64,000 nt of DNA from Ostreococcus lucimarinus (lineage: Eukaryota): NCBI GenBank assembly GCA_000092065.1, contig CP000591.1; one strand, written 5' to 3'. The stretch's first letter is position 1; the number at the start of each line of letters is the position of its first letter. Both the position numbers and the translations under genes were made by a program. Below are positions 5,876 through 56,678 of this stretch, piece by piece. The notes under the pieces are model-generated. The model made no database searches. It saw only the letters and a list, made by a program, of their open reading frames with translations, and was not told where the DNA came from.

Positions 5876-8105
5876 CTAATTCGTCGAACGTCTTGAGAAC
5901 GTTTTACTCGCTAATTCTGACAACCACGACTTCTTGATCGACGAAACGTCGCGCGCGTACATTTTATTCGTCCTAACTAACTCGTTGAAAAGAATCTGCG
6001 CCGCAAGAAAAATTGTCAGCGTGAAATAATTAATTGTAAGGAAATAATTACTCACCGTCTCTGGAGGCGATTGAAACATCACCGAGCTCGGGTGAATCGT
6101 TAGCTTCTGGCCCGTTGTAAAGACTTTGAACGATCCATCCATTTCCTTCGAAGCCGTATTCATGAAAAAGCCCGATACCAGCGATCGTAGCACGAGCGTG
6201 AAGTCGTCTTCACATGAAGTCAAATTAATTCCCTGCGACATTGCTGCTCGTGTCAATTGCTCGTTGATCTTGACCGCTTTTGTCATCGCTCGATGGTTAA
6301 TCTGGTGCTCTCTGCACCAATCGCGACTTCGCTTCGGACTGCAGGCCGAAAATTCGTTGAACACGCGCAGCAACGTCAAATGATCGCCCTCCTGAAATAA
6401 TTGTGTAAGAAAATATTAAATTATTTTTTCTTGGTCGACTCACCTTTCGCTTCAATTTGTGTCTTGCGACATTCTTTTGCCCGTCTGCCTCCCTGGAAAA
6501 CTGAAACACGCTATCTGTTGACAGCATGGACAAAACAGCGAGTGTTTCGATAGCGCACCCTTCGATTTCAGCGGCAATTACGCATCGTGCAGCCATGGGC
6601 TCGAGGGGAAACCTCGCCATTTTTTTTCCGACGTCGTTAAGCTTTCCATCGTCGTCTAAAGCGTCCAGCGAGTACAATAATTCAAGTGATCGTAATAACG
6701 CCTCTTTAGGCGGCGGATCGATGAAAGGAAACGACAAAATGTCGTCAACTTGCATTGCCTGCGAAATAAATAAATAATTCAGTTAATTTTTAATTGTCTC
6801 AGGAAAGCGCTCGATTCGGGCGCGACAGATCCTTACCTTTAGCTGAAGAACTACTCCACTTAAATTTGTACGCAGCAGTTCCGGTTTAACGTATTTTTCC
6901 AGGCTCGGCATGATTTCTTCGGTGTAGAGTCGAAAGCACTTACCAGGCGCTTCGCGCCCGGCTCTACCGGCGCGCTGTTGCGCCTGACTCTGCGCAATCG
7001 GGGTGACCAGGAGCTCGTCCACGCCGCTTCTTGGATGATGCGTTCGTAGTTTACTCAGTCCTGAATCCACAACGTACCGAATCCCATTGATCGTCAACGA
7101 TGTTTCGGCGATATTCGTCGCCAAGACGACTTTGCGCGTTCCCAGAGGCGTCGGCTCGAAGACCTTCATCTGCTCCTCCGGGGGCAGCGCAGCGAACAAG
7201 AGTACCACGTTGAGTTTCAGCACGTTTGAGGGAAGTTCAGACGCTTTCTCTCGCAACATCCTTCCCAACGACTCGATCTCCTCTTGACCAGTTAAGAATA
7301 CTAAGACATCTCCCGCCGCCTCTTCCTCGTTCACTTGAAGCACCGTCCACATCGCGGCGTCCAAGTAGTCCTCCTCCGGCTCCTCTGTGTAGAACATTTC
7401 GACGGGAAACGTGCGGCCACGGGAGTAGATTACGGGCGCACCATCGAAGAATTTACTAAAACTCGACGCTTCAAGCGTAGCAGACATGACGATGACGCGT
7501 AACGGTGGCAACGCGCGTCCGTACTGGTCCTCGCCGAGCGATTCGCGTCGACGACGTTGCACGCCTTTGATCGTGCCCAACAGGAAATCGGTCTGCAACG
7601 TGCGTTCGTGCGCTTCATCAATCATGATAACACCGTACTTTGACAGTAAAGGATCTCCGACCGCCTCTCGCAGGAGCATACCGTCGGTGAGAAACTTTAT
7701 GCGCGTCTCTTCGCTCGAGACATCTTCGAATCGAATGGCGTACCCCACGAGCGTGCCGTGCGCCGTACCGGTTTCATCGGCCACGCGACGCGACACGGAC
7801 ACTGCCGCCACCCGTCTCGGCTGTGTGACGCCTATCATCAACCCATTCGTCAGCGTCATGTCTTCGTACACGTATTGCGGAATTTGCGTCGTCTTCCCGC
7901 TTCCGGTTTCGCCGATGATGATGACGGTTTCGCTCTTCCTAATCTCCTCCATCAATCGATCCTTCGCGCGATATATCGGCAGTGACTTTCGCACTCGGTC
8001 GATTTCTTCTCTCTTCGCTCCCGTGGGTGCCCCGTTCGCCTTCCGCGCGTCGGACGTCGACGCGTCTCCGCCCCCGCGTTCGCGTCCCTCGCGAAGCGTC
8101 TCCAT
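5876..8105 (-). CDS. DEAH-box ATP-dependent RNA helicase (DHX33/DHX35-like), four exons
   Basis: Exon 1 is 6837..8105 (GETGSGKT, DEAH, SAT, QRAGRAGR motifs). Exon 2 is 6444..6758 (HA2 domain, ...LQLK|AMQVDDILSFPFIDPPP). Exon 3 is 6046..6391 (EGDHLTLLRVFNEF..., OB-fold). Exon 4 is 5876..5997 (ILFNELVRTNKMYARDV...). Introns are 6759..6836 (78 nt), 6392..6443 (52 nt) and 5998..6045 (48 nt). All are GT..AG and phase 0, and the joined protein matches the DEAH helicase C-terminal architecture without gaps. Confidence 0.8.
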
Positions 8106-23571: not shown

Positions 23572-24807
23572 TCAATAGGGCTTGTGTCGCACGCTCGACC
23601 CTCCCTTCGCGGCTAATCGAGCAGAGATGGCTGCTGCGCGCGCCGCGGCCTCGCTCTGCGCAGCCTTGGCGTCGATGTCAACTTTCGCCGGCGCCGGCGC
23701 CAGGCTAAACGAGCGCGGGTTCAAGAGCTTGGGCGTCTTCGCCAGCTCCACCCGAAGATTCCTCCCGCCCACTTGCATGCCGTTCAAAGCGCACGCCGCG
23801 AGCGCTTCTTTGTTTGATTCAAACTCGATGAAGCAAAAGTTCTTCCCCGGTCCCCCCTCTCGACACTCCGCGATGGAGCCGCAAAACGAAAACAACTGCT
23901 TCACCTGCTCCGTGGTGAGCCCGACGGGGTAGTTGGACACGTGCGCGGTGCGTCTGAGCTCCTCCGGCACGGGCGGCGGCGGCACGTTCACCACGCCCAC
24001 CGCGTCCCCTCCGCTCGCGCCGGGCGGCGGCGGCGGCGGCGGCGGCGGCACGTCGTGCTTGAACTTGCAAATCACCCTGTCGCAGTTGCCGAGCAAAAAG
24101 TCTCGACACACCCCCGCCGGCGCCGGCTCCCCGCGCGCCAACAGAGGCACGCCGCGCGCGCGACGCTCGTTCACCAGCGGCCCGTCCAACGGCGCGCTGT
24201 AAAACACCTCAAACGGCGACCCCTCGATCTCGACCCCGTCCATCCTCACCGTCACTCGATACTCCCCTCGCTCTCGCACCGCGTACGCGCACGCGTGCTC
24301 GCCGTCGCCCTCGTCCCGTCCCTCTCCCGCCGCCACCACCTCCCCCCCTCGCCCCACGACCTCGAACGTCACCCTGTGCGCCCCATCGTTCGTTCGTTCT
24401 CCCTCACCGTCGCGCACGCTTACCGTGAACCCACTTTCCCGTCCCGCCGCGCCGCCGCCGACCCCCGCGCCTCGCGCCGTCGTCCGCCGCGGATCCGCCA
24501 CCCCTCGCGCGTACCCGCTCCCCGTCGTCGCCGGCCCGATCGCCCGCGTCGTTCCCAAAGCGTCTGGGTCCACCCCCCGCGCGCGCAGCGCCTCGCGCGC
24601 CGTCGCGTCGTCGTCGAACCGATCGAATTGTTTCGCATCGCGCACGCGCCGTCCCGTCGGCGCGAGCGTCGGCGGGACGCGATGCGCGCGCTTGAAGGTG
24701 GCCTCGAACGCGGCGCGCGCCTCGGCGTCGCGCTCGGCGGTGGCTTTCTCGGTCTCGCGAAGCGCCGCGGACTCGGAGGGGCCGACGCCGAAGCGACGAA
24801 GCGCCAT
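23572..24807 (-). CDS. putative RNA-binding protein with filamin-type Ig repeat, CCCH zinc finger and C-terminal RRM
   Basis: A filamin repeat motif is present (GEYRVTVRMDGVEIEGSPFEV). The C3H1 finger is CRDFLLGNCDRVICKFKHD. The RRM is LFSFCGSIAECR...NFCFIEFESNKEALAACALNG. The track ORF runs to 24852; the likely start Met is at 24807. Confidence 0.55.
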   Translation of the reverse strand: MALRRFGVGPSESAALRETEKATAERDAEARAAFEATFKRAHRVPPTLAPTGRRVRDAKQFDRFDDDATAREALRARGVDPDALGTTRAIGPATTGSGYARGVADPRRTTARGAGVGGGAAGRESGFTVSVRDGEGERTNDGAHRVTFEVVGRGGEVVAAGEGRDEGDGEHACAYAVRERGEYRVTVRMDGVEIEGSPFEVFYSAPLDGPLVNERRARGVPLLARGEPAPAGVCRDFLLGNCDRVICKFKHDVPPPPPPPPPGASGGDAVGVVNVPPPPVPEELRRTAHVSNYPVGLTTEQVKQLFSFCGSIAECREGGPGKNFCFIEFESNKEALAACALNGMQVGGRNLRVELAKTPKLLNPRSFSLAPAPAKVDIDAKAAQSEAAARAAAISARLAAKGGSSVRHKPY

Positions 24808-25019
24808 GGCGGCCGACAGTGGGGACGCGGACGCGCGCGCACATGTGCACACGTCGCTTTATTTGCTGACATTTTTTATATAGCGTCATTGGAGGTATTC
24901 TAGTACCTCAGCGTTCATATAAGGACGGTGCGTATACCTATTTACCAGAGAAATGGCAAAGGCCCTTTCGTCAACACGTGCGTCTTTCGCGGGACGACGG
25001 AATCATTCATGTGAGCGAG

Positions 25020-25080
25020 GGACGAATGCGTGCGTGAATGAATGAATGCATGAATGAATGAATGAATGCATGAATGCGCA
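25020..25080. repeat. (TGAA/TGCA)n microsatellite in the WRKY 3' flank
   Basis: The sequence tgaatgaatgaatgcatgaatgaatgaatgaatgcatgaatg is read directly. Confidence 0.8.
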
Positions 25081-25163
25081 ATGAATGGGCGCGATGCGTG
25101 CGATGACAAACTGACAAACGACGGCGCGATGGCGACGACGGCGACACAACGCGAGCGGCGACG

Positions 25164-26528
25164 TCAACCGAATAAGGAAAAGGAGCACCGCGGACGACGC
25201 GCGGGCGAAGGCGCGCCGGGCGAGGGCTCGCGCCGACCGCGAACGGTTTTGGAGAGCGACGCCAGGAGAGGGGTGCCGGTGACGATGGCCTCGAGGGGAG
25301 ATTTGAGGAGATCGCCGATGGACCAGTCGTCGCGGGGGGAGCGGCGCGCCGAGGGGTCGTCGGCGACGACGCGAAGCGCGGGGGGACGCGCGGGAAAGTC
25401 GTCGCGGCGGCGGCGGTCGAGAGATGATCTCGGCGGTGCTGAGGTGCGATCTTCCGCGGTCGGCGGATGGGGGGACGATTGGAGCAATCGAGCCTCGAGA
25501 TCGGCGTCGCCGAACGGCCACGTGGGCGAGAGAGGCGACGCGGGCATGAAGTCAAACCAATGACGCGGCGTCGGCGCGGAGCGATCGGCGACGGCTTCGC
25601 GATGGACGCGGGCGGCGTCGTCCATTCGCGTGCGCGCGTGCGCGTGAATGAGCGCGTTTTCCAGCGCCAAGGCGTCGTAATCCGAGCTCCATCGCTCGCT
25701 CGCGGTCAAGTACTCGTCAAAACACGTCAAGACGTCACCCATGGCGGCGAACGACGGGCTCAGCGGATTCACGGCGCGTCTCGGCTTCTTCGCCGCGACG
25801 GCGCTGCACGAGGATTCTCGGCGCTCGCGCGCGGACTGTCCGGATCCGCTGGACGTCGTCAGTAATCGACGACCACTTCGCGATTTTCCTGACGCCGAGC
25901 GCTTCGGTTTCGTCGTGCTCGACCGCGGTTCGAGTGGAATCTTCTTCGCTCGCGGCGGAGTCTTCGGCGTCGCTCTCCGTCGCTTGCCCGCTCGAAGATT
26001 TTCCTCCTCCTCCTCCTCCTCCGCAGACGTCGTGAAATCGCTATTCATCGTCGTCAAGTCACATTCATCTTGAACGTCCGCGCCTCGTCGCACCGTCGTC
26101 CCTCGTCGCGCGTTCGTCGCCGTGGAATCTCCGCTCGCGCGCGTCCCGAAAGATTTCGTCGACCCGGGCGCGAGCGTCTCCGCCCGACCGCCACCCCCGC
26201 TCGGTTTCGCGTGCGTGTGTTCGCCCTCGTAGCACACCACCGTCTCCATTTCTCCATCCTCACTCGCGCGTCGCAATTCCGTCTTCTTCCTCGCCGGACA
26301 CCCTCGCTCCGTGCACCGGTAATACGACCGCGGAAACGACGATCCCTTGATGTTCTTTTGCCCGTACTTGCGCCATCGGTACCCATCGGCGTGCGCGCTC
26401 GACGGCGCGTGCGCCGCGACCGTCGTCGTCGACCTCGACGTCGAGTGCGGATACGATCGTCGCGGTCGATCGCCGGCGTCGTCGTCGTAAACGCGCGTCC
26501 CGTGCGTCGTCGTCGTCGCCATCGTCAC
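25164..26528 (-). CDS. WRKY-domain transcription factor
   Basis: The WRKY core and zinc-ligand pattern are canonical ([37 protein letters not shown]...CYEGEHTH). The rest of the protein is Ser/Thr/Arg-rich and low-complexity. Confidence 0.8.
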
Positions 26529-26944
26529 CGAGAAAAGTCAACCCGCGCGCCCTCGCCTCGATTCGATCGCCGTTCGTCGCGCGTCGCGCGTCGCGCGTCG
26601 CGCGTCGCTCGCGCGCGCGTCGCTCGCGCGCGTCGCGCGCGTCGATCGCTCCCGCCGTCGCCTCGCCGTCGTCCGCGCGCGTCGCTCGACGACGCGACGC
26701 TCCACCGCCGCGCGCGCGACGTTCTGTCGTCCGCCCGTCGTCGCGCGCGCGCGCGTCTCCGGGCGCCCTCGCGCGCGCCTCGCGCGCGCGCACTCACGCG
26801 CCAGCGCCGAATGTCTGTTTTTGCCCCGCCCCGCCCGATCGTCGCGCGCGCGCGATCGCCGGCGTCCCGGCGCGCGGTCTCCGGGCAGACGAATCGCCGT
26901 TCGCGCGTCCGAGTCATCCGTCCGCGGCGACGGGTCTACAGTTT

Positions 26945-27185
26945 CAGAGAGTCCCCCGACTGACGAGTCATGATTCGTCGACGGGGACTCTCTGAACCGG
27001 GACGTGGGATTTTTACCGTATGGGTCACGACTCCTCGTTCGGGGGTACTCGTATGAAACGCCGTAATTTTATTGATGCTAGGGTTTAGAAATTAGGGTTT
27101 ACACGTCAAAAATCGCCGAGGTTCGATTACAAACGTGTCAAAAACGTGGCTTTTCTGAAACTCGATTTTTGCTAGGGTTTAGCGA
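26945..27185. promoter_or_regulatory. divergent-promoter region with a 49-bp near-perfect palindrome and three telo-box-like motifs
   Basis: The palindrome cagagagtcccccgactgacgagtcatgattcgtcgacggggactctctg lies at about 26945..26993. Telo-box-like motifs ctagggtttag, attagggtttac and gctagggtttag lie at about 27078, 27094 and 27171. All are read directly. Confidence 0.5.
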
Positions 27186-27218
27186 CTCCGGTTTTCCGGC
27201 GGAATTGCGTGCGGGCGG

Positions 27219-27959
27219 TTGGGGGCGGCGGCGTCGTCACTCCTCGCCGACGTGTCGGCAAAAGACAGAGAACAGTTCGCCCCCGTCGAAATGAGCGACG
27301 GTGCGATGCGCCCGTGGTTTCTTCGCGACGAGGATAGGCGCAGGAGCCTCGTATACGGCGTGGGTGCGGTCGCTTTCGCCCTCTTGGGGTTGGTCGTGAC
27401 TACTGGTTCGAGGACGGAGTATAAGGTGGTTGCGTACAAGCCAAGTCTTTATGAACACGTCGGGTCGCATCAAGTCAAAGCCCACTATGACATTTACCCG
27501 GATACACATGACATTCACCAGGCAGATCACCCTTCTGAGGATCCTGCAGATCCTGAAGAGGAACTAGTTTACAAATATAATGGTAAGCATGTTTCTTCAG
27601 CAAACGAGAATCGGATTCGGGCACTGTACTCGCCATCAGGCTCGTCCTTCATAGATGTGGTCAAACGGGAAGGTGTGGACGACGCTACCATTTTCGAGAC
27701 GTGTCTGTATCCAACAGTGACAGCTGAATTCAGGACGTACTACGGCCACGATCTGACAATCGAACCAGATACGACGAGCAAGGATCTAGGGAAGCCGGTG
27801 AACCAAGTCGAAGCACACCAATTTGGTTGCGTGTGGGAGAAGTTGTTGAATAAACTAGCGGAGTCGAACTGGAAATTCGTCACGTCCGAAACGATTATGA
27901 CTGAAAAGACGTTCTATGAGATGCATATGATTACGTTCTCACGAAAAAAGACTACGTAA
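27219..27959 (+). CDS. hypothetical protein (N-terminal MG..., one predicted TM helix), AT-rich relative to neighbours, no recognisable domain
   Basis: The track ORF is 246 aa, starts MGAAASS (Gly2) and has a hydrophobic segment LVYGVGAVAFALLGLVVTT. Codon composition is strikingly AT-rich compared with adjacent genes, and the gene is followed by an AT-rich 3' region. Confidence 0.45.
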   Translation: MGAAASSLLADVSAKDREQFAPVEMSDGAMRPWFLRDEDRRRSLVYGVGAVAFALLGLVVTTGSRTEYKVVAYKPSLYEHVGSHQVKAHYDIYPDTHDIHQADHPSEDPADPEEELVYKYNGKHVSSANENRIRALYSPSGSSFIDVVKREGVDDATIFETCLYPTVTAEFRTYYGHDLTIEPDTTSKDLGKPVNQVEAHQFGCVWEKLLNKLAESNWKFVTSETIMTEKTFYEMHMITFSRKKTT

Positions 27960-28664
27960 AATAGTTTTGATGTTGTTTAGATTGTCGTATGGGCAAACAG
28001 TTAGACATTCTCCACAGCTTCCATTCGCGCGACCAGAGCGTTGACGCGCTCTTCGAGTTCGTCGATGCGGCGCCTTGCGGGAACCTAAACCGGATACGCG
28101 CAAACCCGTGGGACAAGATTCGTCTCGCCGCGGCGAGACGAATCGGACCGCCCGTTTCGAATTTCTAGGAACCCCCTAGGGTTGTGACGGGGCGGTCCGT
28201 GTTTCGTCGTCAGTCTCGAAGGCGGGCGCCCCTCGGCGCGCGCGCGACGCGCGCGCGCCGTCTCTTCGTGACGCACATAGACGCATCATGGTGCGTGCGA
28301 CGCGCGACGGCGACGAGGCGACGCGCGCGAAATAGACGCTCGATGCGCGCGCGCGCGATCGGGCGTCGGCGCGCGATGGACGGCGCGGACGACGCGCGGA
28401 CGACGCGCGATGGCGATGGCTCTAGGGCTTGAAGCGCGATCGCGCGTTCGGGACGCGCGCGCGCGGAGAGAGACGCGCGAAGGGCGATCGCGCGTCGCGA
28501 GCGCGAGCGGTGATATCGTCGTCGGCGGCGGTGCGGTGCGAGCGGTGATGGGGGGGTCGACGGCGCGGGGAGCGCGGGGGAGACGGGACGACGCTGGCGC
28601 ACTAGGGTCGCGCGAGTGGATGATGAAAGAGAGACGACTGACGATCGAGCGACGACTTGGCGCG

Positions 28665-28886
28665 ATGCGAAAACAGCCTAAAGAAATTAGCGAAATTAAG
28701 GACTTCTTGCACACGGCGCGCCGGAAGGATGCGCGATCGGTGAAGATCAAGAAGACGGCGGGCGTGACCAAGTTCAAGGTGCGCTGCTCCAAGTACTTGT
28801 ACACGCTCTGCGTGAAGGACTCCGATAAGGCGTCCAAGCTCAAGCAGTCGTTGCCCCCGGGACTTCAAGTGATGGAGGTCGCTTAG
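28665..28886 (+). CDS. RPL38: 60S ribosomal protein eL38
   Basis: [73 protein letters not shown] is 73 aa and collinear with eL38. The track ORF 28410..28886 has a spurious 5' extension. Confidence 0.85.
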
Positions 28887-29053
28887 AGTTTGAAGGTCAC
28901 ACACACTAGTCGGAGTTATTAGCGCGAGAATGGAAGACGGCGCGAAGCGCCTTGTAAAGAGAGTTCGATCCGTCTCACATTTCATTTCGTTTACTCATTC
29001 GTTCGGCTATCGCTCTCACAATGCGCTAAGCGTAATTCACGACTCGGCTCGAT

Positions 29054-30227
29054 TCACGCCACGACGCTGGTGCGACGCGGAAGGTTGAACATGAAATCGA
29101 CTTCGAGCTCGCCGTCTTCCGTCAAGTCGGCGCAATGCACGGCGTTGCGCTGTTTGTCCTCCCCGAAACGCGCGCGAAGGGATTCGGGACGTAACACGCG
29201 GGCAATTTCGGGGTCTCTCGGTCCGACGATTTCTCTGATGTCGTCCACGAGCGTCTCCGGGGACCTCAAGCGCGAGAGTTGCAGCGCCACGCAAGCGCCG
29301 CAACTCAGTTCATCGATCATCATCTTCACCTCTTCCTTGTCTAAAACGTCCACGTAAACGGCGTAAAATGCCTCTGCCTCGAGGCGCGTTAGCGCTAATG
29401 TTCGAGCCTGGATTAAATCCAGTCCTTTCTTCTCGCACAGGAAATCTAAAATCGCTCCGAGATGCGCCATACCGCTGGGTTTGACCACGACGAGCGACGA
29501 ATGCTCGGTGGGTGATTTCGACGACGATCCCGTCGCCAGCTCTCCTAACGCTCGAGCGTGCTCTTCGTCCATCGATCGCACCACATCGTTCGTGTGAGCG
29601 AATAATCTGGCCAAAATTGCATTCGCCTCGCATCCAATCGCGCGTATCGCGCACGACGTCCCAGACGCGAGCGCCCTCGCGTTCCTCGGCAGCGCCGTCT
29701 CGAGCTCTTCCAACCGACTCGTCCCGAACGCCACCGTCTTCATCTCTGCGATCGTCAACCCGTTCTCCTGCATCGCGTGCACGATTCTACCGATGCGGCA
29801 CACGTTTTCACTCGACACCAAGGCGAACGATTCCTCGCGCTTCGTCTTCATCGCCGTCGCCGTGCGTTCGTCCGCGTACCCGCGCACGGTCAACCGCCTC
29901 GACCAAATCGTCACCGTCGCGCCTATGAATAGCTCGTCCAGCGCGATCGGCGTTTCCGGCGCGCATTTCCGCAAAAATGCTTTCTTTCGTTTATCCTCAA
30001 TCTGCGCCGCGTCGTCGCGTCGCCTCCGTCAGTCATCGTCGCGCTCGCGCGCTCGCCTCCCACAGAGCACCAACCATCCATCCAGACGTCGCGCTTTACT
30101 CGCGCGCTCAACGCACCAATTCCACGTCGCCATCCTCGGGGTAATAAAACAACGTAAACGCTCGCTCGAAGTCTTGCGCGGGGTCCACCCAGACCGCCTG
30201 AAATCCAAGTCTGGACTCGGTGCGCAT
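29054..30227 (-). CDS. NME7: NME7-like nucleoside diphosphate kinase with N-terminal DM10 domain (flagellar/centrosomal type), two exons
   Basis: Exon 1 is 30117..30227 (MRTESRLGFQAVWVDPAQDFERAFTLFYYPEDGDVEL, matching the NME7 DM10 start) with a GTGCGT donor. The intron is 30002..30116 (115 nt, CAG acceptor). Exon 2 is 29054..30001 (IEDKRKKAFLRKCAPETPIALDELFIG..., then NDK domain with NAVHCAD signature). The track ORF 29054..29974 lacks the first half of DM10. Confidence 0.75.
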
Positions 30228-30344
30228 CGAAAGATTTAAACTCGCGAGCGTCAGAGTGGGGTGTATTTTTAGCGCGCGGCGAACGCGGTCGGTGAAATCG
30301 AACGCGGACGCGTCGCGAACGCGGATGAAGATGACGATTGATTA

Positions 30345-31673
30345 TTATTTCAAAATGGATAAAAATCGGAGGTAGGCCTCGGCGGCGCGCTTGCGCGAGG
30401 CGCGGTAGCGCACGGCGAGCAGCGCGCGAGGCGAGAGCGACGCGGCTTCGGCGGAAGCTAATAAGGCTTCGTCCTCGGCCAGTGTCGTCGGACAGGCGGA
30501 TAAGTACGAATCAACGGCCTGACGTAAGGCTTGAATGACTTCAGGGTCGGTTTCTGGGGGAGCTGGGGCGTCAGCGACGCCCGGGGGCGGACCGCGCGAG
30601 GCGACCATGAGGAGATTGGAACCCGCGAGCGCGGCGGCTTTGTCGCCGGCGTCGTCGAGGGCTTTGCATGCGTCGGCAACGCGAGATCCGTGCACACGTC
30701 GAGCGCCCGGGGCGATAAATTCCATGGGCAATCGTTCGTTACGATTTTCATCGTCGATGAAACCGTAGTGAAGCATGAGCAAGGCGTTGTTCATTCTGTC
30801 GCCGTACGAGATGAAAACCTCGGTGTTCGCCACCGGCGTCGGGCCCTCGATTGAATCTTCGTTCCACGTGAGCTCGAAGTTCTTACCATCCGCGCTGACG
30901 CCATACTTTGCCGTAGATTCCACTCTGTGATTCGCCAAATCGATCGTCGGCGCCAAGAACGCGCAATCCGCGTCGCCCAGTTTACCGCTAATCGCTCGCG
31001 TGTGCACCCACGAGCGACACCATCGGAGTTCGTCTTCGCTCGACGTCCCCAGCGCGGCTTTCACGTCCGGAAACGCCTCCATCGCGGCGTTCCAAGTCGC
31101 TTCGTACCCAGCCTTCGAGCGTTCGGCCATGACGCGTATCTCAGCGTCTTGCAACATCTCCAACTCCTCCTCGTTCGCCAAGTACCCGCAATCGAACGCC
31201 GCCGGCACCACCTCCGCGCCGTACGCCCGCCACGCCTCCGCGTTCTTCACCGCCCACGCCAGCATCGCCGCCAATCGCACGTCCTTCGCGAACGGCGCCG
31301 ATATCACGAATTCAATCAGGCACTCCGGCACGTCCACGCCGAAATGTCTTCGCCAGCCCTCCCGATACGTCTCGCGAATCGCCGTCGCCGCGCGTCCCTC
31401 CGCGCCCTCCCCGACCGCCGCCGGCGCGCACACCAGTGCGTCGATCGCGACGCTCACCAGCGCGCTTCCGGTGCCGGTGACGAACAGTCCGCGCCCGTGC
31501 GCGCCGACGTCCACGCGCGCGTGTCGCAGCGTCGACGCCGGGTCGAACGTCGTCGTCCCGCGCGCGTCCGCGTCCGCGACGGCGCGGCGCGTCGACGCGC
31601 GTCGCGCGCGCGTCGATCGCGCGCGAGAGGGGCGCGCGAGGCGCGCGTCGACGCGAGCGGCGGTCGCGGGCAT
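30345..31673 (-). CDS. SET-domain protein-lysine methyltransferase (Rubisco LSMT / SETD6-like)
   Basis: The C-terminal SET signature is present (LANHR...TEVFISYGDRMNNALLMLHYGF), preceded by a Rubisco-LSMT-type substrate-binding region. The N-terminus is Arg/Ala/Thr-rich and transit-peptide-like. Confidence 0.7.
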   Translation of the reverse strand: MPATAARVDARLARPSRARSTRARRASTRRAVADADARGTTTFDPASTLRHARVDVGAHGRGLFVTGTGSALVSVAIDALVCAPAAVGEGAEGRAATAIRETYREGWRRHFGVDVPECLIEFVISAPFAKDVRLAAMLAWAVKNAEAWRAYGAEVVPAAFDCGYLANEEELEMLQDAEIRVMAERSKAGYEATWNAAMEAFPDVKAALGTSSEDELRWCRSWVHTRAISGKLGDADCAFLAPTIDLANHRVESTAKYGVSADGKNFELTWNEDSIEGPTPVANTEVFISYGDRMNNALLMLHYGFIDDENRNERLPMEFIAPGARRVHGSRVADACKALDDAGDKAAALAGSNLLMVASRGPPPGVADAPAPPETDPEVIQALRQAVDSYLSACPTTLAEDEALLASAEAASLSPRALLAVRYRASRKRAAEAYLRFLSILK

Positions 31674-46800: not shown

Positions 46801-46830
46801 GTATCAACCCTAAACCCTAAACCCTAAACC
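46801..46830. promoter_or_regulatory. (CCCTAAA)x4 interstitial telomere-like / telo-box array about 70 bp upstream of the DEAD-box helicase start
   Basis: The sequence aaccctaaaccctaaaccctaaaccct is read directly. It contains the AAACCCTAA telo-box three times. Confidence 0.6.
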
Positions 46831-46899
46831 CTACTCGCGAGGCGACAACCGCCGCCGCCGCGCGCGCGACGGCACTCCGACGCGCGCGGCGCCGTCGCG

Positions 46900-47223
46900 A
46901 TGGCGCTCGACGACGACGACGACGGCGCGTTCGTCCTGAACCTCGCCGACGACGGCGACGCCGGCGTCAGGGCGCGCAAGGGCAACCCGCGGCGACGCAC
47001 GGTGGCGCGCGCGTCCAAGAAAGGATGGCGCGGCGGCGGCGACGACGGCGCGACGCGCGCGCGCGAGGGACGGACGAGAGAAAAGCGCGCGCGAGACGAA
47101 GGCGAATGGAATCGCGGACGGGCGCGGACGAAGCGGGAGACGACGCGGGACGGCGCGAGGGGAGGGCGAGGGGCGGGACGCGGGACGCGCGCGCGGGACG
47201 CGGGAGAAGGACCGAAGACGCGG

Positions 47224-55493: not shown

Positions 55494-56678
55494 ATGCGCG
55501 CGTTGCTCACCTTGATATGCGCACTAGCGCTCGCGCTATGCAACAAGCTCGTCGCCGCGAGTCCTGTGCGCAAACCGTACATCGTCTCGTACGATGGTGC
55601 CGTCGATGAAATCTGTGACGCCCTGGAGTCGACGACGAAGCATATGAATTTTCATTGTCTGTGGCATTTGAAGATAAAATGTCGTCGGCGAATGCGATTC
55701 GCTCGTTTATTTGCCGTGTTTGCCGACGACAAGGAAGTCAACGCACTTCGCACGTGCGTTCCCGCGCTAGATTTCGAAGAAGACGTTGAAGTGTTTTCAC
55801 AAGGCGTGACAACCTGGTCCAGAGACCGTCTGAACGGTAGAGACGGGCTTGATGGTAAGTTGCTTCCTCGCGATCCCCCTGAAGATGGCTATGGGAGCAT
55901 CGTGCACGTTTATCTGCTTGACACGGGTGTGAGAAGGACGCACGTGGAATTCAAAGATCAAGCGTTTGGGCGCGGCGTCGATTTAGTCGACGATGACGCC
56001 GAACCTGATGACTGCGATGGTCACGGTAGTCACGTGGCTTCGACCATCAATCAAATCGCGTATAGCGGCAAGACAGTTCTCCACTCTGTGAGAGTTCTCG
56101 ACTGTAACGGAAATGGTGAGCTCTCGGGGCTGATTGAGGGACTTGAATGGGTGCTCGGTGTGGCGACGCCGTCCGAGCCAGCCGTGGTCAGTTTAGCGCT
56201 CGGAGTGCGAAATGGAATTTGGTCACGCGCACTCGAACGCGTCGTCCAAACGCTCACTGGACGTGGAGTATTCATCGTTTGCGCCGCTGGTAACCAAAAA
56301 GGAGACGCATGCACGATTTCGCCTGGAAACGTCGCGGAGACGCTGACTGTCGCAGCCAGCGATCAAGCAGACGCGCCGTACGCCTATGGAAACTCTGGAA
56401 GGTGCGTTGATTTATTCGCGCCCGGCGTGCAAATTCTCGGTGCATGCGGTGGAAGCACTGCGTGTGAGCATCCAAGCGACACGGCATATGCATTTCAAAG
56501 CGGTACGAGTATGGCGGTCGCGCACGCCGTCGGCGCAGCGACGCGCCTTCTTATGTTTTCCCCACGCATGAGCCCTGAAAATTTGAAGAAGCATCTCACA
56601 TCAACTGCGTCGCGCGACAAAATTCGAGGTGGGTCATTACTCCCAGGAACTCCGAATCTACTGTTGTACGTGAAATAA
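55494..56678 (+). CDS. secreted subtilisin-like serine protease (peptidase S8, proteinase K-like) with signal peptide and I9 propeptide
   Basis: A signal peptide is present (MRALLTLICALALALC). The catalytic triad contexts are present (VYLLDTGV for Asp, DGHGSHVAS for His, GTSMAVAHAVG for Ser). Confidence 0.8.
   Translation: MRALLTLICALALALCNKLVAASPVRKPYIVSYDGAVDEICDALESTTKHMNFHCLWHLKIKCRRRMRFARLFAVFADDKEVNALRTCVPALDFEEDVEVFSQGVTTWSRDRLNGRDGLDGKLLPRDPPEDGYGSIVHVYLLDTGVRRTHVEFKDQAFGRGVDLVDDDAEPDDCDGHGSHVASTINQIAYSGKTVLHSVRVLDCNGNGELSGLIEGLEWVLGVATPSEPAVVSLALGVRNGIWSRALERVVQTLTGRGVFIVCAAGNQKGDACTISPGNVAETLTVAASDQADAPYAYGNSGRCVDLFAPGVQILGACGGSTACEHPSDTAYAFQSGTSMAVAHAVGAATRLLMFSPRMSPENLKKHLTSTASRDKIRGGSLLPGTPNLLLYVK

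Follow-up and report, generated by a model that had tools for sequence, protein, structure and literature searches.

How did a gene of low GC content come to lie between a WRKY transcription factor gene and the gene for ribosomal protein L38e in the nuclear DNA of Ostreococcus lucimarinus CCE9901? The gene belongs to a stretch of 64,000 nucleotides (nt), referred to here as the window, of a 593,542-bp chromosome. A sequence-only reading had described positions 27219-27959 as a compositionally atypical orphan gene for a domainless protein with a Met-Gly start and one hydrophobic helix. It had offered two origins, recent acquisition by horizontal transfer, for example from a prasinovirus-like virus, or fast evolution within the lineage. 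In this study, we describe the segment that carries the gene, which is absent from near-identical environmental genomes, and we report homologues of the gene in virus-associated DNA. With high probability, the open reading frame (ORF) is cargo carried by an insertion of about 1.1 kb, very recent and polymorphic among strains, which was drawn from the gene pool of polinton-like viruses (PLVs) and captured beside a palindrome. Coordinates are collected in Table 1.

The acquisition can be read from an empty site. Syntenic environmental genomes were reached through contigs that encode, for a neighbouring gene, a relative at the 90% cluster level. Two environmental contigs, L020 and L021, whose flanks are 98-99.6% identical to the window, lack positions 26999-28128. 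In L020, taken from an 82.7-kb contig, sequence 98.0% identical to window positions 24000-27009 is directly adjacent to sequence 99.6% identical to positions 28129-31000. L021 (35.6 kb) has the same empty arrangement, with position 26998 joined to 28129. Presence or absence among strains, which the sequence-only reading had named as a check, thus speaks for the proposed acquisition.

The junctions indicate how the segment may have entered. In the empty allele the host sequence GGGGACTCTCTGAACC, which ends at 26998, is followed by CGTGGGAC-CCGC-GCGGCGAGACG. In the filled allele GGGGACTCTCTGAACC is followed by 1,108 inserted bases and then, at 28107, by CGTGGGAC. The last 14 nt (AGATTCGTCTCGCC) of the 15-nt string that stands in place of CCGC are the reverse complement of nucleotides 2-15 of the host sequence GCGGCGAGACGAATC (28130-28144), and the string looks like a templated, snap-back repair scar. 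At the right end of the insert, 34 nt match neither donor-type nor host sequence and are therefore regarded as filler. The host palindrome at the left junction folds as DNA with -20.6 kcal/mol (z = -3.66 against shuffles) and is likely a break-prone or fragile site. Neither terminal inverted repeats nor a meaningful target-site duplication were found at the insert, at most a 4-nt AACC repeat. A search for flanking repeats gave CG-rich low-complexity matches only, and the flank alignment stayed within the range of shuffles (score 27 against a mean of 19 and a maximum of 33). Breakpoints moreover differ among the window copy and the copies on contigs L018 and L013, which are described below. A transposable element was considered and rejected, since defined termini and a target-site duplication are missing and the breakpoints vary between copies. 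From these junctions we infer that foreign DNA was captured during end-joining repair of a break, and not by transposition. The stretch 28107-28144 varies even among empty alleles, CGTGGGACC being present in L020 and absent from L021, which suggests repeated break and repair there.

The supposed lack of homology did not hold. A word-seeded search, run over 5.8 billion proteins, found 21 homologues; when 1.84 billion representatives were searched exhaustively with a hidden Markov model (HMM) profile, 72 representative clusters passed E<=1e-3. The homologues sort into four kinds. Near-identical copies form one 90% cluster of 47 members, and a variant (P0002, encoded on L011) is without about 115 nt of the linker. 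Proteins of type A share about 40-45% identity over the C-terminal 85% and have a different N-terminus (MERDDTLNRVTLNNHDGDVYLESTGEHSEIVFKTQKVRVDGDVY...). In proteins of type B, the first approximately 45 residues, comprising a tail and a transmembrane (TM) helix, are about 88% identical to the window protein, the remainder only 25-30%. At the nucleotide level, 27226-27399 shows 89% identity over 174 nt to the type B genes in L003-L010, rising to 95.6% for 27264-27399. This similarity stops abruptly at 27399, and the similarity to type A genes (L001, L002) starts at 27389, so that the junction sits in the conserved segment TSGS.TEYK.V.YKP. The gene is a mosaic of a 5' membrane-anchor module and a C-terminal domain related to viral fibre-type proteins. 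All near-identical copies have this mosaic in common, therefore it arose before the capture in CCE9901.

Type A proteins begin with a module of about 50 residues (NRVTL..DGDVYLESTGE..VRVDGDVY). It is absent from the window protein, in which the type B tail and TM helix take its place, leaving only the C-terminal domain and the TEYK.V.YKP segment in common with type A. The same N-terminal module recurs on proteins with FG-GAP propellers, DUF285 repeats, long coiled coils and EGF-like segments, and such combinations are the architecture of viral fibres or adhesins with exchangeable distal parts. In one further protein (P0021, 348 aa, on a contig of 1,429 nt) the type B tail and TM helix are joined with a domain of the fatty-acid desaturase / AlkB type (PF00487), a combination that reflects either an assembly chimera or further shuffling of the type B module.

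Relatives of the gene stand among viral genes. Contig L002 (7 kb, GC 0.485) encodes, in this order, a packaging-ATPase-like protein, a Lys/Glu-rich protein, a type A homologue, a C5 methylase, a 327-aa penton-like ORF and a 446-aa protein. The ATPase-like protein has a P-loop and matches the PHROG terminase large subunit at 3.9e-10, and a double jelly-roll (DJR) major capsid protein lies on the same element as the type A relative. Homologues of the gene are encoded in bona fide virus genomes, a mark of recent horizontal insertion or of an endogenous viral element. The L002 capsid family is found mostly on contigs of <=25 kb (7-23.5 kb for the relatives in IMG/VR), with few copies in contigs of 185-318 kb; these sizes fit PLVs, some of them integrated. 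A link to the host comes from L008, where a low-GC block of 4.5 kb (C5 methylase, N6 methylase plus DUF5906 / D5-like primase-helicase, type B gene) is joined to host genes, one of which clusters at >=90% with O. lucimarinus XP_001420873.1. On L003 a type B gene lies near a fragment of the same primase family. One or two polinton-like or virophage capsid genes have been counted in genomes of Ostreococcus sp. (Bellas et al. 2023, PMC10120064).

Regarding the virus group, a prasinovirus had been suggested as the donor. Low GC resembles that of Ostreococcus viruses, and the promoter motifs described below could be common among algal viruses. Against this stand the search matches, which include no named prasinovirus protein (no search was aimed at prasinovirus genomes), the viral protein structures in BFVD, which gave no significant match to the target, and the capsid family of the relatives, whose contigs of mostly <=25 kb are about ten times below prasinovirus genomes. 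A prasinovirus-derived gene is accordingly very unlikely, and the source looks like small PLVs.

The same cassette recurs at other places. Positions 26998-28066 are about 97% identical to contigs L013-L016 and L019, which have a GC of about 0.49 and extend on both sides. In these contigs the 23-codon stump near the right end of the insert belongs to an ORF of 168-249 aa, which follows the gene on the opposite strand. The window retains only the last 23 codons of this fibre-like gene, therefore the insert is a fragment of a larger element. The longer ORF of L014 matches Peptidase_S74 with 23.4 bits at a cut-off of 22 bits, with no stretch significant on its own. The fibre-like ORF of these contigs matches the SlyX coiled coil with 29-30 bits, at or below the cut-off of 30 bits, and weakly matches PHROGs at the C-terminal ends of tail-fibre and tail-spike families. 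In contig L018 (13.7 kb, GC-rich, with C2-domain, rhodanese and sulfotransferase-like genes) window positions 27152-28011 are present at 98.4% identity, with different breakpoints on both sides. The cellular contig L001 (DnaJ, mitochondrial carrier; GC 0.62) contains a low-GC insert of 1.35 kb, in which a type A gene is accompanied by part of the methylase gene next to it. Since copies are found in the window, in L018, in the L013-type contigs and in L001, DNA of this family, in pieces the size of a gene, has reached host chromosomes on several occasions. Together with the empty site and the homologues in a contig encoding a DJR capsid, these host contexts strongly support the horizontal, viral origin that had been proposed.

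Two repeats were seen in these contigs. A direct repeat of about 45 nt (CCCACGAGGGGTCTGAAAAAACGCACATCCA.AATCAGAC.TCCCG; L001 9282-9325 and 10474-10518) brackets the viral insert of 1.2-1.35 kb, and unlike the window junctions it may mark another integration route, such as entry of a circular molecule by one crossover. In donor-type contigs (L013 170-270, L012 21-48, upstream regions of L003-L007) both window-type and type B genes are preceded, at a distance of about 250 nt, by a short palindrome (GGGTAGTTTACTGTACAGTAATCTACCC), which the window insert does not include.

Base composition had been the starting point of the sequence-only reading. Among the 41 non-overlapping ATG ORFs of the window, which served as reference, GC is 0.609 (standard deviation 0.060) and GC at third codon positions (GC3) is 0.705 (standard deviation 0.091). 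The ORF at 27291-27959 has a GC of 0.498 (z = -1.85), the second-lowest, and a GC3 of 0.570 (z = -1.49), among the lowest. The deficit is limited to 27399-27959 (GC 0.469, GC3 0.524); the 5' 108 nt of the ORF are GC-rich (GC 0.648, GC3 0.806). The insert as a whole, with a GC of 0.507 between flanks of 0.70 and 0.64, departs from the host flanks, the departure of coding GC being only moderate. The gene is thus lower in GC than its surroundings, as stated, and, at about 1.5-1.9 standard deviations below the ORFs of the window, it is not extreme. An ordinary DEAH-helicase HA2 segment (6297-6755, minus strand; GC 0.466, GC3 0.464) has the lowest GC among the ORFs of the window, so that composition alone is weak evidence, and the case for acquisition rests on the comparative evidence. 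A cue of this size is not decisive by itself when genomes are scanned. In the whole window, intergenic GC (0.70-0.80, CGCG-type low complexity) is far above that of coding DNA (0.50-0.65), the inverse of the usual pattern, and simple GC windows therefore flag genes and not islands.

The moderate deviation is the point in favour of a native, fast-evolving, lineage-specific gene whose low GC reflects heterogeneity within the genome, since the helicase segment and a subtilase gene (55494-56678, GC3 below that of the target gene) are as low or lower. Such a native gene is contradicted by empty-site alleles in genomes of 98-99.6% identity, by the same sequence in unrelated contexts and by the truncated stump of a foreign gene inside the segment. 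This origin is excluded by the empty site, and we consider it extremely improbable.

The insert brought an upstream region along with the gene. Motifs resembling telo-boxes, TAGGGTTT, stand in it at 27078-27087, 27092-27101 and 27172-27181; seven occur in the window where 0.56 are expected. A 30-nt stretch containing one of them is 96.7% identical to the sequence 30-60 nt upstream of the ATPase gene of L002, and tandem copies are found just upstream of the type B genes in L003-L007. Further TAGGGTTT / AAACCCTA motifs lie in L002 at 590-597 and 2110-2117, and in the host part of the window three tandem copies (46811-46834) precede a gene at 46900. This suggests a promoter element common to, or mimicked between, the small virus and Ostreococcus. 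Because the motifs came along with the insert and are located upstream of viral and host genes, expression of the captured gene from its own putative promoter is plausible. One MMETSP culture transcriptome contains a type B homologue (P0054) as a complete transcript.

Concerning the encoded protein, the reading frame is open without interruption to its end at 27959, and its beginning had been misplaced. Position 27219 carries a TTG codon. An ATG in frame is first reached at 27291, in agreement with the NCBI model, and the product starts with Met-Ser-Asp. Gly2 is missing after this ATG, and the Met-Gly start with its possible N-myristoylation motif therefore falls away. The single hydrophobic helix was confirmed (LVYGVGAVAFALLGLVVTT, residues 20-38, mean Kyte-Doolittle 2.13), and by the positive-inside rule a type II single-pass membrane protein with the N-terminus inside and the C-terminus outside is predicted. 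The absence of known domains was confirmed as well: searches of the target against Pfam gave sub-threshold noise only (DUF1619_N, TFCD_C), PHROGs profiles gave no match, and neither did tblastn against 50,697 phage records. The linker is disordered and prone to indels, with a predicted local distance difference test score (pLDDT) of the AlphaFold2 model below 50 for residues 58-80 and 89-116. The model is confident only for residues of about 41-50 and 120-222 (pLDDT 74-94), the latter forming a small alpha/beta domain. Homologues of this C-terminal domain are encoded on virus contig L002 and in the L001 insert; no fold relative was detectable among solved fibre heads. A 57-nt in-frame intron (27583-27639, GTAAGC...CAG) was considered and dropped, as the NCBI model contains no intron and these positions simply belong to the variable linker. 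No paralogues were found within the window, and no mention of the accession numbers of the gene was found in the literature.

Table 1. Features at the insertion locus; positions are those of the window.
Feature	Position	Strand	Basis or remark
Coding sequence, 222 aa	27291-27959	+	Exact NCBI match, XP_001420353.1 / ABO98646.1 / UniProt A4S4Z3, "predicted protein"
TTG codon, earlier taken as Met start	27219-27221	+	Not ATG; bacterial-table start of ORF listers and metagenome gene callers
5' mosaic module (leader, cytosolic tail, TM helix)	27226-27399	+	Common to type B homologues
TM helix, residues 20-38	27348-27404	+	Hydropathy maximum; RRRS just before
Acidic Pro/Glu-rich variable linker	27504-27618	+	Missing in variant L011; 12-nt repeat indel in L018
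Conserved C-terminal alpha/beta domain (SSFIDVVKREG...C...CVWEKLLNKLAESNW)	27636-27956	+	Two invariant cysteines; homologous to viral type A C-terminal domain
Strain-polymorphic insertion, 1,108 nt	26999-28106		Absent from L020 and L021
Upstream region brought in with the gene, putative promoter	26999-27290	+	Three telo-box-like TAGGGTTT motifs
Truncated 3' end of fibre-like coiled-coil gene, last 23 codons, RRIDELEERVNALVARMEAVENV*	28004-28072	-	tblastn of L013/L014 ORFs
Right-junction filler, 34 nt	28073-28106		In neither donor-type contigs nor empty site
15-nt insertion AAGATTCGTCTCGCC	28115-28129		Replaces CCGC of empty allele (window versus L020, L021)
Host imperfect palindrome, 59 nt	26939-26997		Ends exactly at left junction; in filled and empty alleles (L020, L021)
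Upstream host gene, WRKY transcription factor	25164-26522	-	WRKYGQK motif; transcribed away from insertion; flank 98% identical in L020/L021
Downstream host gene, ribosomal protein L38e	28548-28886	+	Pfam Ribosomal_L38e on syntenic genes of L020-L024; flank 99.6% identical

We propose the following course of events. In the promoter region between the divergent WRKY and RPL38 genes of CCE9901, the chromosome would have broken next to the palindrome and captured DNA, namely a fragment of a low-GC element from the gene pool of small DJR-capsid (polinton-like) viruses. These viruses would infect and integrate into Ostreococcus-type algae. The fragment brought along the upstream region with its telo-box-like motifs, a single complete gene and the residual end of the fibre-like gene beside it. 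The gene was a mosaic already before the capture: a short basic cytosolic tail with TM module is fused at about 27390-27400 to the linker and an alpha/beta domain of about 100 aa, a domain which in the type A viral homologues follows the N-terminal module that is also seen on fibre- or adhesin-like proteins with FG-GAP, DUF285 or coiled-coil parts. The product would be a type II single-pass membrane protein that displays a domain of viral fibre-distal type on an acidic flexible stalk. Repair would have left the 15-nt scar at 28115-28129 besides the insertion 26999-28106.

Several points weigh against this account. The exact donor was found on no contig that also has capsid genes. Scans of IMG/VR with the family alignment and the type A protein gave no confirmed locus, and no complete virus genome with the gene was recovered. 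(Seven IMG/VR contigs recovered with the capsid alignment contained no homologue of the target.) Two metagenome contigs represent the filled allele, L017 reading across the left junction at 100% identity and L012 across the right one at 99.9%. Each of them switches to donor-type sequence at its far end, and they may in part be assembly chimeras. The near-identical copies differ by 2-7 substitutions, too few for the intact ORF to say anything on selection. Compared with L011, 23 non-synonymous stand against 2 synonymous changes, clustered in the linker, which is not purifying selection. Finally, L013 and L014 probably represent another host locus, and the window copy could derive from such a locus and not from a virion.

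The chimeric look of L012 and L017 bears on the view that the insertion is an assembly artefact or a contaminant of the CCE9901 reference. L022, L023 and L024, metagenome scaffolds of this species, add to it, as they break or carry N-gaps at the exact insertion site (L022 1749-1853; starts of L023 and L024); such gaps would be expected if assemblers cannot resolve a segment that is present in some genomes, absent from others and also repeated elsewhere. As independent metagenome contigs reproduce both junctions at 99.9-100% and the junctions show specific repair scars, an artefact is scarcely credible.

The second host locus deserves more weight. In L013 and L014 the next gene is dynamin-like, with relatives among cellular genes (citrate synthase, patatin, Snf7, PheRS) in L032 and L033. 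This neighbour belongs to a cellular family, therefore L013/L014 is most likely another host locus with a longer fragment; the idea that these contigs represent a free donor virus was dropped for this reason. An IMG/VR scan with the dynamin-like protein of L013 gave no confirmed locus. The dynamin-like gene itself forms a low-GC pocket (0.45-0.51) in GC-rich surroundings in three different genomes (L032 1000-3000, L033 6000-8600, L013 1804-4080), and in the L013-type contigs viral fragments are inserted right beside it. The window copy might then be a segmental copy, made within the genome or between strains during break repair from a locus of the L013/L014 type, with the viral origin moved one step back. 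The longer version that these contigs hold beside a gene with cellular relatives favours such a copy. It is disfavoured by the 90% cluster, in which only one protein has a CCE9901 accession among the members listed, and by the L013-type segment itself, which has a truncated fibre-like gene and an upstream region common to type B genes beside viral primase/helicase genes, and is therefore also an insert. We regard a segmental copy as a minority possibility, and capture from the PLV gene pool as the better explanation.

What the captured gene does can be predicted only with reserve. By a narrow preference, we predict a young passenger, neutral or nearly so. Less probably, and by analogy, it may be retained by selection as a membrane-anchored decoy or receptor mask against attachment or entry of a related virus; what probability remains falls to other roles. 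The differences from L011 are too few and too likely recombinational for a claim of positive selection. Closely related is the proposal of a domesticated antiviral gene, whose anchored fibre-distal domain might block or mask a receptor or otherwise interfere with the small virus or a helper giant virus. The same cassette, always with complete ORF and upstream region, at several host loci with different breakpoints (window, L018, L013-type; type A in L001) would agree with it. So would the TM anchor in place of an N-terminus of the virion-attachment type, the two invariant cysteines, the variable linker with its non-synonymous excess and the complete transcript of a type B homologue. Chance alone, however, would leave insertions of such recent date intact, and alleles without the insert are common in nature. 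Neither fold nor sequence connected the protein to any known receptor-binding domain, and the dN/dS signal consists of 25 changes, grouped in a region where a tract of recombination is just as probable. Domestication is thus unlikely. Still more doubtful is the wider proposal that Ostreococcus populations might repeatedly capture and keep one PLV gene as a heritable decoy or receptor mask against PLVs or the giant viruses they accompany.

The insertion captured from the PLV gene pool resembles integrated PLVs and virophages of protists (PMC10120064) in that virus-derived DNA resides in an algal nuclear genome, in that relatives lie beside a DJR capsid, packaging ATPase, primase/helicase and methylases, and in that one relative belongs to a block of viral DNA adjoining host genes of O. 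lucimarinus type. It differs in being a single-gene fragment of 1.1 kb, compared with elements of 14-40 kb, in a window without capsid, integrase or terminal repeat, and as a polymorphic insertion with end-joining scars in place of integrase-type ends. Gene exchange between hosts and viruses has been described for prasinoviruses (Moreau et al. 2010, as cited in PMC10385804). As in virus-to-host transfer in Mamiellophyceae, a compositionally deviant gene with viral relatives is found in an Ostreococcus genome; unlike in prasinovirus exchange, small DJR viruses appear to supply the gene pool, and the direction is demonstrated by an empty site and not inferred from phylogeny.

At the protein level, modular fibres (adenovirus fibre, PRD1 P5, Peptidase_S74 phage tail fibres) combine an N-terminal attachment module with exchangeable distal domains. 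The type A module of about 50 aa, common to FG-GAP, DUF285 and coiled-coil proteins, and the donor neighbour gene, with its C-terminus of S74 / coiled-coil tail-fibre type, follow this pattern; the window protein departs from it by a TM anchor in place of the N-terminal module. Fv4 and enJSRV env are receptor-interference genes derived from endogenous viruses. The likeness to them is an analogy and consists in a predicted host-encoded, membrane-anchored domain of viral surface type and in recurrent gene capture, the source here being a DNA virus fragment and not a retroviral env.

The gene belongs to a known class, endogenised viral DNA in algae, and stands out by its youth, its readable junctions and its recurrence at several loci. 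A virus-to-alga capture young enough that filled site, empty site and donor-type sequence coexist at 97-100% identity is rare. Since all three are extant, direction and mechanism can be read, with end-joining by a palindrome, filler and a templated scar. The data point to small polinton-like DNA viruses of O. lucimarinus-type hosts, of which we found mention in the literature only as counts of capsid genes (PMC10120064). They further point to a modular, rapidly varying family of viral surface type, with swappable N- and C-terminal modules, one cassette of which is present at several host loci.

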